Below are positions 1,573 to 39,078 of a DNA stretch of 59,847 bases, piece by piece. A program made the translations under genes and the position numbers. This stretch comes from Patescibacteria group bacterium (GTDB lineage Bacteria; Patescibacteriota; Minisyncoccia; Phycocordibacterales; JACZSL01), in contig JADFRL010000001.1 of NCBI GenBank assembly GCA_022561335.1, positions 1 to 59,847 of the forward strand, written 5' to 3'. The notes below the pieces were generated by a model. That model worked only from the letters and a program-made list of their open reading frames with translations. It was not told the origin of the DNA and ran no database searches. Each line of letters begins with the position of its first letter. Positions within the stretch are counted from its first letter, which is position 1.

Positions 1573-3480
1573 ATGATCAACAAATCAGATAAACCAGAAC
1601 AAAAATGGAGCTCTGGACAAAAACGTAAGCCTAAAATAGCCTTCAGTCGAAAGAAAAACAGAGCCGGAGTCGGCATCGAGAGGCACCAGAAAACTCGAAC
1701 AGTTCACCAAAACAGAAGGAAACAACCCAGGCGATTACCACATGCTCCTATTCTTCCTAAACTTAATGACAGAAAAGGTAAAAAGCAGGATGATGATATT
1801 CCAGCGCTTAATGACAGTATTCGTATCATTCCGCTTGGCGGTGTCGAGGAAATCGGGCGCAATATGTCACTTATCGAGTACGGCGGCGACATAATTATTA
1901 TCGACTGTGGATTCCAATTTAAAGAGGACTCAACTCCGGGAATCGATTATATCCTCCCCAATACCAAGTACCTTGAAGACAGAAAGAGCAAGATACGCGG
2001 CGTCTTTATAACACACGGACATCTTGATCATATAGGAGGTATCCCCTATCTTATTGACAGTATTGGCAATCCACCCATTTATTCACGCCGTCTCACAACG
2101 GTTATGATAAAAAAAAGACAGGAAGAATTCCCGCATCTTCCGCCGTTAGATATAAGAGAAGTAGAAAAAGATGATGTAATCAAAGTGGGAAGCTTAACCG
2201 TTAAGTTTTTTGCCGTTACACACACCATTCCTGATTCAATGGGAATAATAGTGGAAACTCCCTACGGAAGCATCGTACATACTGGAGACCTCAAACTTGA
2301 CCATGTTAATGAAGTCCCTACAAAAGCAGAAGAAGACGAGTTTAAAAAATTTGAAAAGGAAAATGTGCTCTTGTTAATGGCTGACTCAACCAATGTTGAA
2401 AAACCGGGATTCTCATTTCCTGAGGCCGAAGTGCACAAAAATATTGAAGAGTTTATACGAAACGTAAAAGGAAGAATGGTTATCGGGACATTCGCTTCTC
2501 AATTGGAGCGACTCGTAAAGATAATTGAAATAGCAGAGAGATACAAGAAAAAAATTGTTATTGAGGGACGAAGTATGAAAACGAATATTGAAATTGTTAA
2601 AGAGCTCGGTATGCTTAAGGTTAAAAAGGATGCTTTTATCGGCGTAGAGAGAATAAGTGATTATCCTGATGATAAAATTCTTGTGCTTGCAACCGGAGCG
2701 CAAGGAGATGAATATTCTGCACTCATGCGTATGGCCTCAGGTACCCATCGGCAATTCAAAATAAAGGAGGGCGACACTATTCTCCTTTCTTCTTCAATTA
2801 TCCCCGGCAATGAACGCGCTGTGCAAAAACTGAAGGACAATCTTTCGAGACGAGGTGCTAATATCATTCACTACCAAATTGCCGGGGTTCATTCAAGCGG
2901 ACACGCGAATAGGGAGGAGGCCGCATGGATACTTAAGAAAGTAAATCCAAAATTCTTTATGCCGCAGCACGGATACCACTACATGCTCCGCGTACACACC
3001 GACATCGCAATGTCATCCAATATACCCGAAAAGAACATAATCATTCCAGACAACGGTTCAATTATAGAAATTCAAGACAAAGGAGCAAAAATTGTAAAGC
3101 TTAAGGAAAAAGCTCCTTCGAGTCTCAGAATGGTTGACGGATTTTCAATTGGAGATATGCAGGAGGTGGTCATACGTGACCGAAAGATGCTCTCCCAAGA
3201 GGGTATATTTGTAATCATTGTAACCATTAATCTTAAAACAGGTAAACTCAGAAAATCACCTGATATTATTTCGCGCGGATTTGTGTATTTACGCGAATCT
3301 CAGGAGCTTCTCCAGCAAACCCGCCTTATTATCAAAAAGACAGTTGAAAAAACTACCGTAGGAATGAACCCCATTAATTTTGATTATGTAAAGACAAACA
3401 TAACTGATGACGTTAGTCGATTTCTCTTCCAGAAAACCAACAAGCGGCCTATTGTGATTCCCGTAGTACTCGGGATTTAA
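1573..3480 (+). CDS. rnj: Ribonuclease J (beta-CASP metallo-beta-lactamase RNase) with basic N-terminal extension
   Basis: HGHLDHIGG (HxHxDH) motif. The conserved core starts at IRIIPLGGVEEIGRNM. 635 aa, with the first ~85 aa Lys/Arg-rich. Confidence 0.85.
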   Translation: MINKSDKPEQKWSSGQKRKPKIAFSRKKNRAGVGIERHQKTRTVHQNRRKQPRRLPHAPILPKLNDRKGKKQDDDIPALNDSIRIIPLGGVEEIGRNMSLIEYGGDIIIIDCGFQFKEDSTPGIDYILPNTKYLEDRKSKIRGVFITHGHLDHIGGIPYLIDSIGNPPIYSRRLTTVMIKKRQEEFPHLPPLDIREVEKDDVIKVGSLTVKFFAVTHTIPDSMGIIVETPYGSIVHTGDLKLDHVNEVPTKAEEDEFKKFEKENVLLLMADSTNVEKPGFSFPEAEVHKNIEEFIRNVKGRMVIGTFASQLERLVKIIEIAERYKKKIVIEGRSMKTNIEIVKELGMLKVKKDAFIGVERISDYPDDKILVLATGAQGDEYSALMRMASGTHRQFKIKEGDTILLSSSIIPGNERAVQKLKDNLSRRGANIIHYQIAGVHSSGHANREEAAWILKKVNPKFFMPQHGYHYMLRVHTDIAMSSNIPEKNIIIPDNGSIIEIQDKGAKIVKLKEKAPSSLRMVDGFSIGDMQEVVIRDRKMLSQEGIFVIIVTINLKTGKLRKSPDIISRGFVYLRESQELLQQTRLIIKKTVEKTTVGMNPINFDYVKTNITDDVSRFLFQKTNKRPIVIPVVLGI

Positions 3481-24590: not shown

Positions 24591-24661
24591 TGCCGGATCG
24601 TCTAATGGTAGGACACATGCCTCTGGAGCATGGTATCTTGGTTCGAGTCCAAGTCCGGCAG
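24591..24661 (+). tRNA. tRNA-Gln (anticodon CUG)
   Basis: Hand-folded cloverleaf: acceptor UGCCGGA/UCCGGCA (U1-A72, as in bacterial tRNA-Gln), D stem GUCU/GGAC, anticodon arm CAUGC-CUCUGGA-GCAUG, T arm CUUGG-UUCGAGU-CCAAG. No encoded CCA. Confidence 0.9.
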
Positions 24662-24727
24662 CACTTCGACAAGCTCAGTGCAAACTGAGTGGAGAAGTGA
24701 GCTGAATTTATTGAAGCTCATGAGATA
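24644..24727 (+). repeat. Direct repeat R1 (84 nt). Its first 18 nt are the 3' end of tRNA-Gln
   Basis: 81/84 identical to 24982-25065. Contains hairpin CTCAGT-GCAA-ACTGAG. Confidence 0.9.
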
Positions 24728-24980
24728 TTTTGTATATATAATTTTGTGTGAAAACAAAGGTCTCTACACTGGTTTCAGTACCAATGTAGAGAAACGATTT
24801 GCTAAGCACAAAAGAGGTAAGGGTAGTTCGTATACGCAAGCAAATAAAGCATTGAAGATCGTATATACAGAAGAGTTTTCAACTAAAGGAGAAGCTTTGA
24901 GTCGAGAAGCTCAAATTAAAAGGTGGAGGAGAGAAAAGAAACTGAATCTCATACAATTCGGAAAACTAAAAATTTCATAA
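24720..24980 (+). CDS. GIY-YIG nuclease superfamily protein (small stand-alone UPF0213/COG2827-like)
   Basis: YFVYIILCENKGLYTGFSTNVEKRFAKH (GIY..YTG), later REAQIKRW. The ATG lies within the last 8 nt of R1 and the stop is 1 nt before R2. Confidence 0.8.
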   Translation: MRYFVYIILCENKGLYTGFSTNVEKRFAKHKRGKGSSYTQANKALKIVYTEEFSTKGEALSREAQIKRWRREKKLNLIQFGKLKIS

Positions 24981-24981
24981 C

Positions 24982-25065
24982 CGAGTCCAAGTCCGGCAGC
25001 ACTTCGACAAGCTCAGTGCAAGCTGAGTAGAGAAGTGAGCTGAATTTATTGAAGCTCTTGAGATA
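24982..25065 (+). repeat. Direct repeat R2 (84 nt), starts with a second copy of the tRNA-Gln 3' end
   Basis: See R1. The triplet matching the GIY-YIG ATG is TTG here, followed by TAG two codons later. Confidence 0.9.
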
Positions 25066-25142
25066 GGTTCGGAGTACGAAGAGCATCGAAACCTACGAGT
25101 TCTATTCCGAAATAGCATACCTGCTGAGTGCAGTACCAGAAA

Positions 25143-25175
25143 GAAAAATCACTAAAGTGGAGTGATTTTTCTTTT
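25143..25175 (+). terminator. Intrinsic terminator (11-bp stem GAAAAATCACT/AGTGATTTTTC + TTTT)
   Basis: Read directly. Downstream of tRNA-Gln/R2. Confidence 0.6.
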
Positions 25176-25207
25176 ACTCTCCTAAATTAATTTAGGAGAG
25201 TTTTATT
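25176..25207 (+). terminator. Perfect 26-nt palindrome ACTCTCCTAAATT/AATTTAGGAGAGT followed by TTTTATT (second terminator or operator)
   Basis: Read directly. Located 60 nt upstream of the ABC ATPase start. Confidence 0.45.
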
Positions 25208-38811: not shown

Positions 38812-39010
38812 GCGCGGCGGACGGGACTCGGTCACGAGTCACTAAGTATTTTAGTTCGCTTTGCTTCTAAAATACTAAGTGCTCTCGACCCCGACTCAGC
38901 CCTCCCTCGTCCCCCGGACGCGGGCTTCTGTCTTTCGAGTCCCGTCTTCTACCACAATAGAAAGTAAAATCACCCAGAAAAATATCTGGGTGATTTTACT
39001 TTTGCGCGGC
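38812..39010 (-). repeat. Repeat Y: second tRNA-Asp 3'-end core (38812-38830) + ~173-nt element, abutting the real tRNA-Asp
   Basis: See repeat X. Confidence 0.9.
38961..39002 (-). terminator. Perfect 18-bp hairpin directly after tRNA-Asp (AAAGTAAAATCACCCAGA-N6-TCTGGGTGATTTTACTTT)
   Basis: Read directly. The copy in repeat X (37383-37424) has 2 mismatches. Confidence 0.5.
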
Positions 39011-39078
39011 GGACGGGACTCGAACCCGCAACTTCTGCCGTGACAGGGCAGTGCTCTATCCAATTGAACTACCGCCGC
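39005..39078 (-). tRNA. tRNA-Asp (anticodon GUC)
   Basis: GCGGCGG acceptor, anticodon arm CUGCC-CUGUCAC-GGCAG, T arm GCGGG-UUCGAGU-CCCGU. No encoded CCA. Confidence 0.9.

Follow-up and report, generated by a model that had tools for sequence, protein, structure and literature searches.

A solo GIY-YIG nuclease gene between direct repeats of a tRNA-Gln 3' end in a Patescibacteria genome: a candidate one-gene cassette

Direct repeats of the 3' end of a tRNA gene are a hallmark of integrase att sites. Endonuclease genes have also been described beside tRNA genes and between a gene and a second copy of the gene's own 3' end. One such enzyme is the free-standing GIY-YIG homing endonuclease SegB of phage T4, which recognises a site that includes the TψC stem-loop motif found in tRNA genes (PMC2330249). 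The motif at which it cleaves, RAWTSGAAC, corresponds on the opposite strand to the T-loop sequence GTTCSAWTY; SegB is tRNA-associated without isotype preference and drives tandem amplification of tRNA and segB by break and recombination (PMC13096335). In fungal mitochondria, a target gene (atp6 or cob) is followed by one or more endonuclease ORFs and then by a duplicate of its 3' end (PMC6279837). In rRNA genes of CPR bacteria, GIY-YIG ORFs occur in non-intron insertions (PMC11270868). An earlier note on the DNA analysed here had stated that no described mechanism fits its layout, a statement that the SegB and fungal mitochondrial precedents contradict.

We analysed a 59,847-nt stretch of DNA from a Patescibacteria group bacterium (contig JADFRL010000001.1 of assembly GCA_022561335.1), hereafter the window. 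A tRNA-Gln gene is followed in it by a small GIY-YIG gene enclosed between two repeat copies, R1 and R2, each of which contains a pair of hairpin units, H' and H. The features are as follows.

24591-24661, + strand: tRNA-Gln (anticodon CTG), U1 to discriminator G73; CCA is not encoded; C56-G73 are part of R1.
24644-24727, + strand: R1, upstream repeat copy, made of 18 nt of tRNA 3' end, 58 nt of leader and the 8 nt that open the ORF.
24661-24681, - strand: H' unit, a tandem-G·A hairpin in reverse orientation (bottom strand GCACTGAGCTTGTCGAAGTGC) that includes the discriminator G; from the motif scan.
24674-24689, + strand: GCAA-capped hairpin CTCAGT-GCAA-ACTGAG in the variable middle of the leader; from the sequence and the minimum-free-energy fold.
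24699-24719, + strand: H unit, GAGCTGAA-TTTAT-TGAAGCTC, a tandem-G·A hairpin that abuts the ATG.
24720-24980, + strand: GIY-YIG gene, 86 aa, UPF0213/YhbQ-like; from Pfam PF01541 and PDB similarity.
24982-25065, + strand: R2, downstream repeat copy, with tRNA positions C56-G73 as the displaced 3' end, a leader that lacks an ORF, and then TTGAGATA.
24999-25019 and 25037-25057: H' and H, respectively, inside R2; from the motif scan.
25059-25139, + strand: flank TTGAGATAGGTTCGGAGT...TCTATTCCGAAATAGCATACCTGCTGAG, also found 3' of cassette-less tRNA-Gln genes in other CPR contigs.
25140-25201, + strand: two terminator-like hairpins, each followed by a T run; from the inverted-repeat search and the terminator scan.

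The tRNA-Gln(CTG) gene was found by ARAGORN (24591-24662) and by the Rfam tRNA model (24591-24661, 59.8 bits). A repeat search and a blastn-short comparison of upstream against downstream sequence showed R1 and R2 to be a single 84-nt direct repeat, identical at 81/84 positions (96%) with a period of 338 nt. The 43-nt repeat core occurs at just these two sites in the window, with 0 expected from 100 shuffles. The left edge of R1 coincides with the T-loop C56 (GGTT/CGAGTCC, slash at the edge), and its first 18 nt are C56 to G73. The ATG of the ORF lies within the last 8 nt of R1, the R2 counterpart triplet being TTG, and the TAA stop ends 1 nt ahead of R2; the 254-nt insert between the repeats is exactly filled by the ORF. 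No other ORF in this interval has a family match, the remaining listed ones being short, overlapping frames. An A-to-G change in R2 converts a U-A pair of the GCAA hairpin into U-G. The earlier note had described the tRNA, the repeats and their start within the T-loop, the GNRA hairpin with its pair-changing substitution, the sole GIY-YIG gene and the placement of its start and stop codons, all of which we confirmed. It had described the 66 nt beyond the tRNA as trailer; they are not generic trailer but hold the family-specific pair of hairpin units. The cassette is present in one copy only; no second was found in the window.

The flank beyond R2 was seen at the second tRNA-Gln gene of L011 and at L046, L083, L119 and L189. 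Because it also lies behind tRNA-Gln genes without a cassette, it is probably the native downstream neighbour. The terminator scan detected none ahead of R2, and the hairpins at 25140-25201 are the first terminators past the tRNA, from which we infer a transcription unit of tRNA, R1, GIY-YIG gene and R2.

The encoded protein matched the Pfam GIY-YIG profile (PF01541, E=1.7e-19) over positions 2-78 of 78. It shows the features of the superfamily, namely a ~80-aa alpha/beta domain in which conserved Arg, His/Tyr and Glu come after the GIY and YIG motifs, and the catalytic-type residues Y6, Y16, G18, R26, H30 and E63 are unchanged across 10 homologues. A phmmer search of the PDB returned the UPF0213 structures 1zg2 (E=1.2e-14) and 1ywl (E=1.4e-12), aligned to residues 1-79. 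With UPF0213/YhbQ-like proteins defined as ~85-110 aa long, consisting of the catalytic domain alone and similar to BH0048 and EF2693, the 86-aa protein is, as judged from its sequence, a member of this uncharacterised family. UPF0213 is broadly distributed. IMG/VR viral contigs gave 5 distant homologues only, and the family is therefore not phage-centred. A literature search found nothing on UPF0213, YhbQ or GIY-YIG proteins in connection with CPR tRNAs or hairpin repeats.

Like SegB, the gene belongs to a group of GIY-YIG genes located among or next to tRNA genes of many isotypes and outside introns. It is free-standing: the tRNA is uninterrupted, with the ORF in its trailer, and Rfam detected no intron. 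Most repeat edges of the cassettes fall in the T-loop, and the TψC motif is part of the SegB site. The two systems differ in their enzymes: SegB has ~220 aa with a DNA-binding part, whereas the window protein is the ~80-aa catalytic domain only, lacks a SegB- or I-TevI-like DNA-binding domain and scored 18.9 bits against TIGR01453, the group-I-intron endonuclease model (cut-off 56.05). In these two features it departs from the SegB/I-TevI type, and for these reasons its sequence-specific cleavage is only putative. SegB is furthermore encoded by a phage, while the cassette is in a cellular CPR genome and brings along a conserved leader of hairpins and a tRNA 3' end that replaces the resident one. 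The fungal mitochondrial arrangement shares the order of functional 3' end, endonuclease ORF and displaced 3'-end duplicate; it differs in its protein-coding target, full-length endonucleases and organellar setting, with no tRNA, hairpin units or UPF0213 protein. Allomyces atp6 is a further example of an endonuclease ORF between a gene and its 3'-end duplicate. The CPR rRNA-gene insertions resemble the window in host group, in their association with stable-RNA genes and in the lack of intron features, but there the rRNA genes are interrupted, and tRNA loci, 3'-end duplication and a hairpin leader are not described.

The first homologues, with 80%, 58% and 56% identity, are all located directly 3' of a tRNA-Gln gene. 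Among 80 GTDB species-level homologues, 34 have a same-strand tRNA gene at most 320 nt upstream (~1.4 expected), with the isotypes Gln (20), Pro (5), Met (3), Phe (2), Leu (2), Tyr (1) and Thr (1). The same order of elements (tRNA, leader, a GIY-YIG gene standing alone, displaced tRNA 3' end) is repeated in many CPR genomes and at several isotypes; the earlier note had asked whether it recurs at other tRNA genes of related genomes. Nucleotide homology between species spans the tRNA 5' end to the stop codon, and the 2.8-kb flanks had nothing in common by tblastx in 10/12 pairs.

A second copy of the tRNA 3' end was detected in 9 of ~41 tRNA-linked copies (the window, L001, L009, L011, L012, L016, L030, L036 and L048), starting -5 to +22 nt from the stop codon. 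The left edge mostly falls within positions 56-61, either inside the T-loop or on the base that opens the 3' strand of the T stem. It is C56 in the window, L001 and L012, the last with 20 nt of tRNA-Met, and a few nucleotides further 3', in the T stem, in L030 and L048. Repeats at the other loci measure 11-28 nt (e.g. 11, 13, 13, 14, 16, 18 and 20) versus 84 nt in the window, so that 84 bp, as given in the earlier note, is not a fixed target duplication; a transposon with a short target-site duplication of fixed length, made by staggered cuts, was ruled out by the same variation between loci. No repeat was seen in L002 and L006, and the leaders of L027, L050 and L065 have older tRNA 3'-end remnants nested inside. 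In the closest relative, L001, the junction between stop codon and remnant is the same as in the window at a dS of ~1.6, which indicates an old arrangement that was vertically kept here. The L001 remnant is closer to the window tRNA type than to L001's own tRNA; the resident 3' half has therefore been replaced in L001.

The distribution of the cassette is patchy. Of ~120 metagenomic tRNA-Gln genes, at non-orthologous loci, with an identical 25-nt T-arm plus acceptor, ~8 have a GIY gene at most 900 nt away, and 3 have an ORF-less leader. The earlier note had called for empty sites. Matching tRNA-Gln genes are mostly without the cassette; following synteny via the downstream ABC ATPase gene revealed no orthologous empty site. 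Two relatives of this ATPase (L088 and L089, 87-88% identity) lose synteny just upstream of the promoter and have no tRNA there; L090 starts too near the ATPase gene to be informative.

In most cassette loci, a CACTTCGAC..CTCAGTG module follows the tRNA. The RNAalifold consensus of 10 leaders paired GCUCAG with CUGAGC, and this pairing led to the recognition of the 5' module as H reversed. The H hairpin is present in 34/40 leaders versus 3.3 in shuffles. Its outer stem covaries, o4 being paired in 34/34 and o5 in 29/34 hairpins with several pair types each; these are register-aware counts made in Python, as the MAFFT alignment of the 10 leaders misregistered the H 3' strand. H density is 2.03/kb at most 200 nt from the ORFs versus 0.08/kb elsewhere, and the leader motif is scarce behind other tRNAs (2-3/47). 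Within the window, H is confined to R1 and R2, three further matches being at shuffle level. A long-range P1 stem (CACTTCG/CGAAGTG) with isotype-linked covariation is an automatic consequence of the H'/H inverted repeat and is retained only as an alternative RNA fold. Ribozyme, riboswitch and group I intron were ruled out by the shortness of the leader, the lack of Rfam support and the mismatch to the hammerhead core; Rfam searches at E<=10 in the window region, L001 and L005 and at E<=0.1 in six non-CPR loci returned no non-tRNA match near the gathering score.

With a probability of about 0.55, we interpret the locus as a one-gene selfish or formerly selfish cassette that is lodged in the tRNA-Gln 3' end and spread in the manner of SegB. 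The unit would consist of the tRNA 3' end (C56-G73), the ~58-nt leader with H' and then H, and the 86-aa nuclease gene, ending at the stop codon. The cassette would supply the working tRNA 3' end, and the earlier 3' end with its older ORF-less leader would be displaced just behind the stop codon as R2. As no terminator precedes the cassette, it is probably transcribed together with the tRNA, by read-through from that gene's promoter, and set free when the tRNA 3' end is processed. Installation and copying would most likely proceed as for free-standing GIY-YIG homing endonucleases such as T4 SegB. A tRNA gene would be broken in the DNA that codes for its TψC loop, and repair would copy a cassette-bearing template, pairing on the left in the tRNA body or R1 and on the right in the displaced 3' end or R2, by which the repeat-gene-repeat layout would be regenerated; the element may still be mobile. 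In this genome, gene conversion or a recent re-copying best accounts for R1 and R2 being almost identical. Several points count against the cassette interpretation. The filled allele regenerates the T-loop target, so there is no obvious self-immunity; the protein is a catalytic domain only, the search for an orthologous empty site found none, the window has a single copy with H confined to R1 and R2, repeat lengths vary (11-84 nt), and similar 3'-end duplications occur around inserts that lack a GIY-YIG gene.

The earlier note had likewise proposed a one-gene cassette that regenerates the tRNA 3' end, with the GIY-YIG enzyme as its only candidate mobility function. The GIY-YIG gene is indeed the only candidate for this function, because no recombinase is nearby, the layout is recurrent and the cassette is mostly absent from matching tRNA-Gln genes. 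The proposal is qualified by the old, vertically kept junction with L001, which together with purifying selection suggests long vertical retention and possibly a host function. Acting as a selfish, tRNA-gene-directed nuclease would be a testable role for the widespread, functionless UPF0213/YhbQ family, and the tandem-G·A hairpin would be a concrete candidate recognition element. The cassette would represent SegB-like TψC targeting in cellular CPR genomes, reduced to ~340 bp. It may be the smallest protein-coding mobile unit described, and it would account for the duplicated tRNA 3'-end fragments that litter these streamlined genomes.

A resident host gene is a rather doubtful alternative, though one with several observations in its favour. 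UPF0213 would be a cellular nuclease kept in CPR tRNA operons, the hairpins would act in cis on its mRNA as regulatory or processing signals, and the 84-nt repeat would stem from local duplication or gene conversion, with the gene itself immobile. Strongly purifying selection (dN/dS 0.07 between the window and L001) and the junction common to both fit a resident gene, but the replaced tRNA 3' half of L001 does not. The broad distribution of UPF0213, the single copy in the window and the lack of a repeat in L002 and L006 are also as expected, as is the position of H, 3-25 nt ahead of the ATG in most loci, for a translational element. Against residence stand the rarity of the gene at tRNA-Gln genes with the same 3' half, the seven tRNA isotypes, the tRNA 3'-end remnants adjoining the stop codon in nine loci, the unrelated flanks and the non-CPR homologues located between repeat copies without a tRNA. 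Were this explanation correct, the locus would still be a clean case of a new operon and a new leader motif among CPR tRNA genes.

We consider it unlikely that the locus is an integration scar, in which a tyrosine or serine integrase, encoded elsewhere or lost, left attL and attR as the repeats, with the GIY-YIG gene as a passenger that survived decay. As in tyrosine-integrase islands and prophages, the tRNA 3' end is part of the direct repeats, and the tRNA is made whole by the element. Inserts with the C56 edge and without a GIY-YIG gene are also common: about a quarter (27/112) of tRNA-Gln loci with the same 3' half have such 3'-end duplications, as has the tRNA-Asp in the window, which implies that similar repeats can form without the nuclease gene in cis; Rfam found only tRNAs in these inserts. 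One GIY-less insert of the window is at 38812-39003, and such inserts may be non-autonomous relatives. However, in agreement with the earlier note, no integrase lies between the window repeats, and no recombinase Pfam match was recorded within ±5 kb in L007 (the same locus), L002 or L006. The insert measures just 254 nt, repeat length varies (11-84 nt), and the window repeat reaches 66 nt past the tRNA. The same ORF family and leader make up the whole insert in many lineages, where the remnant lies at most ~22 nt from the stop codon; random decay would not repeatedly leave these two alone with a remnant so placed.

An assembly artefact or a collapsed or expanded repeat, a concern raised in the earlier note and known from mis-joins at short repeats in metagenome assemblies, can be dismissed, since an independent assembly from another sample (L007, a 9.7-kb contig, 99.6% identical) has the identical R1-GIY-R2 layout, down to the three R1/R2 differences, the identical protein is found in seven cluster members that come from several samples, and L001 has the same junction. 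The match to L007 was obtained with the 89-aa gene call (P0001) of the GIY-YIG gene; an exact look-up of the 86-aa product returned no record.

Returning to the cassette interpretation, a wider version of it is possible and is offered tentatively. UPF0213 nucleases with tandem-G·A hairpin units could constitute a previously unrecognised class of minimal nuclease/repeat mobile elements present across phyla, equivalent to REP-RAYT or homing cassettes but with a GIY-YIG enzyme; its CPR branch would land in the TψC-loop DNA of tRNA genes, bring its own spare tRNA 3' end and be expressed via tRNA transcription. A family listed as uncharacterised since the structural-genomics era would in this way gain its first function. 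Like REP/RAYT systems, these loci have a single small nuclease-type gene flanked by family-specific imperfect hairpins in either orientation across phyla. They differ in that the enzyme is GIY-YIG and not an HUH Y1 transposase, and in that the hairpins are not dispersed over the window, whereas REPs are dispersed genome-wide. The tandem-G·A hairpin also flanks UPF0213 genes in unrelated phyla, in either orientation. In the non-CPR homologues the ORF lies between repeat copies with no tRNA, and repeat arrays are present.

The tRNA-Gln locus of the window is, by comparison with other genomes, one case of a recurrent, discrete, tRNA-linked one-gene cassette. Its parts are as follows (H and H', the forward and reverse orientations of a hairpin unit described below).

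24591-24661: tRNA-Gln(CTG), called by ARAGORN (one base longer) and Rfam (59.8 bits)
24644-24727: R1, upstream repeat copy (direct-repeat search)
24661-24681: H' in R1
24699-24719: H in R1
24720-24980: GIY-YIG ORF, 86 aa (Pfam GIY-YIG, E = 1.7e-19)
24982-25065: R2, downstream repeat copy (direct-repeat search)
24999-25019: H' in R2
25037-25057: H in R2
25140-25201: two terminator-like sites just 3' of R2 (repeat search and terminator scan)

R1 and R2 constitute one 84-nt direct repeat with a 338-nt period, identical at 81 of 84 positions; the repeat core has no further copy in the window (0 expected in shuffles). The left edge of R1 is C56 of the tRNA-Gln T-loop (GGTT/CGAGTCC, cut at the slash), and its first 18 nt reach the discriminator G73; CCA is not encoded in this tRNA-Gln. 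A single ORF fills the interval, with its ATG within the last 8 nt of R1 (TTG at the R2 counterpart) and its TAA ending 1 nt ahead of R2. The R1-gene-R2 layout described in the earlier note is thereby confirmed: the tRNA-Gln call, the repeat with its length, identity, period and C56 start, the boundaries of the solo 86-aa gene and the GCAA-capped hairpin with a U-A to U-G change were all reproduced. An assembly artefact, which that note had allowed for, is countered by L007, the same locus from an independent sample (99.6% identity over 9 kb), which carries this structure and in which R1 and R2 differ at the same three positions; the repeat is hence genuine, and at least two strains have it fixed. 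No terminator-like site was found between the tRNA-Gln and the ORF in a terminator scan, and we infer that the gene is co-transcribed with tRNA-Gln and freed by 3' processing after G73.

The encoded protein is a catalytic domain alone, with no recognisable DNA-binding domain in its 86 residues; homologues show no variation at the GIY, YIG, Arg, His and Glu positions. The sole phmmer matches in the PDB were two structural-genomics UPF0213 proteins, BH0048 and EF2693, and the protein scored far under the cut-off of the NCBIfam group-I-intron endonuclease model. Comparison with the homologue at L001, in another genome, gave a dN/dS of 0.07 at a dS of ~1.6, indicating that the gene is functional and long resident at this locus.

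Each of the three closest homologues from the protein search (80%, 58% and 56% identity) lies directly 3' of a tRNA-Gln. A survey of one genome per GTDB species yielded 80 homologue loci, of which 34 have a same-strand tRNA ending ≤320 nt upstream of the ORF, against 1.4 expected from how densely the 47 remaining tRNAs of those loci are spaced. The linked tRNAs cover seven isotypes (Gln 20, Pro 5, Met 3, Phe 2, Leu 2, Tyr 1 and Thr 1); three additional loci (L009, L010 and L030) have a tRNA-like 3' end that ARAGORN missed. The tRNA-linked copies bear a CPR/Patescibacteria label almost without exception; no tRNA lies near the homologues of Acidobacteriota, Planctomycetota and other phyla. In a rough NJ tree, which is suggestive only because the proteins are short, tRNA-Pro-linked proteins cluster together across different CPR classes and tRNA-Met-linked members are intermixed in one tRNA-Gln clade. 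At four homologue loci in tRNA clusters (L055, L056, L061 and L078, ~2900-3350), the ORF lies between an H' module and a 3' piece complementary to H' that immediately precedes the next tRNA; this gives tRNA, H', ORF, 3' piece, tRNA instead of the order tRNA, H', H, ORF.

At nine independent loci the 3' end of the upstream tRNA is duplicated, the additional copy starting -5 to +22 nt from the stop codon.

Displaced tRNA 3' ends downstream of GIY-YIG genes (locus; upstream tRNA; repeat)
Window; Gln; 84 nt
L001; Gln; diverged copy
L009; Met-like; 18 nt
L011; Gln; 14 nt
L012; Met; 20 nt
L016; Gln; 13 nt
L030; Met-like; 13 nt
L036; Gln; 16 nt
L048; Gln; 28 nt at 89%, exact core 11 nt

The left edge in most of the nine lies within the T-loop or on the opening base of the T-stem 3' strand (positions 56-61), being exactly C56 in the window, L012 and L001; the exact repeats of L030 and L048 begin in the T stem, a few nt more to the 3' side. 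Behind the L048 copy stands a separate leader, different in type, and older remnants are nested within the leaders of L027, L050 and L065. Since repeat length varies between loci, a fixed target-site duplication is ruled out; the reading proposed in the earlier note holds in part. Each repeat seems to span as far as incoming and resident DNA resembled one another. The junction 'stop codon, C, remnant from C56' is common to the window and L001, as is the flank TTGAGATA(G/A)GTT. The L001 remnant, CCAAATCCAAGTCCGGCAGC, is closer to the window tRNA type (T stem CCAAG) than to L001's own tRNA (CCCTG), implying that the resident tRNA 3' half was replaced there. The downstream copy has decayed in L001, and R2 of the window is 96% identical to R1; we infer gene conversion between the two window copies, or recent re-copying, in the window lineage. 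L011 (2806-4189) holds two near-identical tRNA-Gln(CTG) genes 1.2 kb apart with a NUDIX-like ORF between them, the first with cassette and remnant and without CCA, the second with encoded CCA and native flank; this looks like a segmental duplication including the tRNA.

The cassette is patchily distributed. Scanning metagenome contigs for the exact T-arm and acceptor 25-mer of the window tRNA gave ~120 tRNA-Gln genes, only ~8 of which have a GIY-YIG homologue within 900 nt (5 directly adjacent); three have an ORF-less leader, and the remainder are followed by unrelated sequence, often starting with CCA. Between species, nucleotide similarity runs from the tRNA 5' end to the stop codon or just before; of 12 pairs with modules 65-83% identical, 10 showed no tblastx similarity between their 2.8-kb flanks. 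As to the empty sites raised in the earlier note, cassette-less tRNA-Gln genes with the same 3' half are common, but no orthologous empty site was found; relatives that are 87-88% identical in the ABC ATPase next to the locus have no tRNA at that position. A flank motif, TTGAGnnAGGTTCGGAGTCC ... TCTATTCCGAAAnnGCATACCTGCTGAG, recurs downstream of tRNA-Gln in several CPR lineages (window 25059-25139; L011 4190-4225, directly after the CCA of the cassette-less tRNA-Gln; L046, L083, L119 and L189), and it includes the final 8 nt (TGAGATA) of the 84-nt repeat.

Duplicated tRNA 3' ends also surround 85-260-nt inserts without a GIY-YIG gene, at 27 of 112 metagenomic tRNA-Gln loci that share the T-arm of the window tRNA, versus 2 in a reverse-complement control; none lies within a full tRNA and many share the C56 edge. 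Such duplications can therefore arise or persist without the nuclease gene in cis, and the inserts may be non-autonomous relatives, products of a trans-acting nuclease, or something unrelated. They start with the reverse complement of acceptor and T stem, continue for ~100 nt and close with positions 56-73 in direct orientation, behind which CCA and native flank often follow (metagenomic contigs L099, L138, L172, L199, L124, L139, L094, L140 and others, and L208 with two tandem units); each may represent a structured RNA with a tRNA minihelix as its cap, or else the scar of a fold-back repair. A comparable insert (38812-39003) lies downstream of the window's tRNA-Asp (39004-39078, minus strand), where a terminator hairpin precedes a ~150-nt strongly folding element (MFE -70 kcal/mol). 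In its 5' part the element carries the tRNA 3' end in reverse complement, and this part pairs with a second copy of the tRNA-Asp 3' end, 19 nt long and starting at C56 (38812-38830); the insert has no GIY-YIG ORF and no Rfam match. In L132, L141, L102 and L091, a longer remnant, from the anticodon stem onward, lies within 25-100 nt after tRNA-Gln. That of L132 and L102 belongs to a different tRNA-Gln allele (T stem CTAGG/CCTAG), so whole 3' halves have been replaced without an intervening GIY-YIG gene.

The earlier note knew of no mechanism that fits, but clear precedents exist for the cassette's logic. Among known systems, T4/T6 SegB comes closest: it is a free-standing GIY-YIG homing endonuclease within a phage tRNA cluster, and the conserved TψC stem-loop motif makes up 11 bp of its 27-bp site (PMC2330249). 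The motif to which its cleavage was mapped, RAWTSGAAC, reads as the T-loop in reverse complement; across phages SegB is associated with tRNAs of all isotypes and makes tandem tRNA+segB repeats via break-induced recombination at microhomology (PMC13096335). Fungal mitochondria provide known cases of a gene followed by an endonuclease ORF and then by a repeat of the gene's own 3' end (PMC6279837), and GIY-YIG ORFs occur in non-intron insertions of CPR rRNA genes, with no mention of tRNAs (PMC11270868). Sequence and domain architecture place the window protein outside the SegB/I-TevI family; the cassette would work like SegB without being one. In the favoured model, a minimal UPF0213 nuclease carrying out SegB-like logic would break the T-loop DNA of a tRNA gene, and repair would copy a cassette-bearing template, with pairing to the tRNA or R1 on the left and to the displaced 3' end or R2 on the right, so that R-gene-R would be reproduced and tRNA function kept. 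Several points weaken this model: the protein has no DNA-binding domain of a recognisable kind, the filled allele again contains the T-loop target, purifying selection is strong and the locus is kept by vertical descent, an orthologous empty site was not found, and 3'-end duplications occur without the gene. Present-day mobility of the cassette is putative.

The leader between tRNA and ORF contains a tandem-G·A hairpin, H (nnnC-Y-GA-R...Y-GA-R-Gnnn), 3-25 nt ahead of the ATG; it is present in 34 of 40 leaders versus 3.3 in shuffles. Covariation is seen in its outer stem, where pair o4 forms in 34/34, using six pair types, and pair o5 in 29/34; sliding the register by one leaves 2/34. The module after the discriminator (CACTTCGACAAGCTCAGTG and variants) is H', and an apparent long-range stem, CACTTCG/CGAAGTG, is an automatic consequence of the H'/H inverted repeat. 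No other credible copy of H or H' occurs in the 59.8-kb window, and in the 80 loci taken together H occurs at 2.03/kb up to 200 nt from the ORF versus 0.08/kb elsewhere; only 2-3 of 47 tRNAs without a GIY-YIG gene are followed by the leader motif. The trailer is a family-specific hairpin pair. H also flanks UPF0213 genes in phyla without tRNA involvement, often as direct or inverted repeats: L072 (Acidobacteriaceae) has a 62-nt H-containing repeat at -78..-17 and +21..+82, a second R-gene-R layout, and L084, L085, L087, L069 and L064 have H-repeat arrays. A phylum-spanning class of minimal nuclease/repeat elements, made of UPF0213 nucleases and H hairpins, is a tentative and rather doubtful extension. 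Homologues of Acidobacteriota, Planctomycetota and others are flanked by 40-60-nt hairpin repeats of type TGTCATYCCGA...GAGGRATC, direct or inverted and sometimes in arrays (L072 2900-3450; the five array loci; L075); these repeats contain the tandem-G·A unit of the CPR leaders. Rfam scans of the window leader, L001, L005 and six non-CPR loci gave no family for H-type leaders or repeats. For the leaders of 10 loci, RNAalifold prefers the conserved GCUCAG of the 5' module paired with CUGAGC of the H 5' strand, a fold mutually exclusive with the H hairpin that could act as an mRNA-leader switch.
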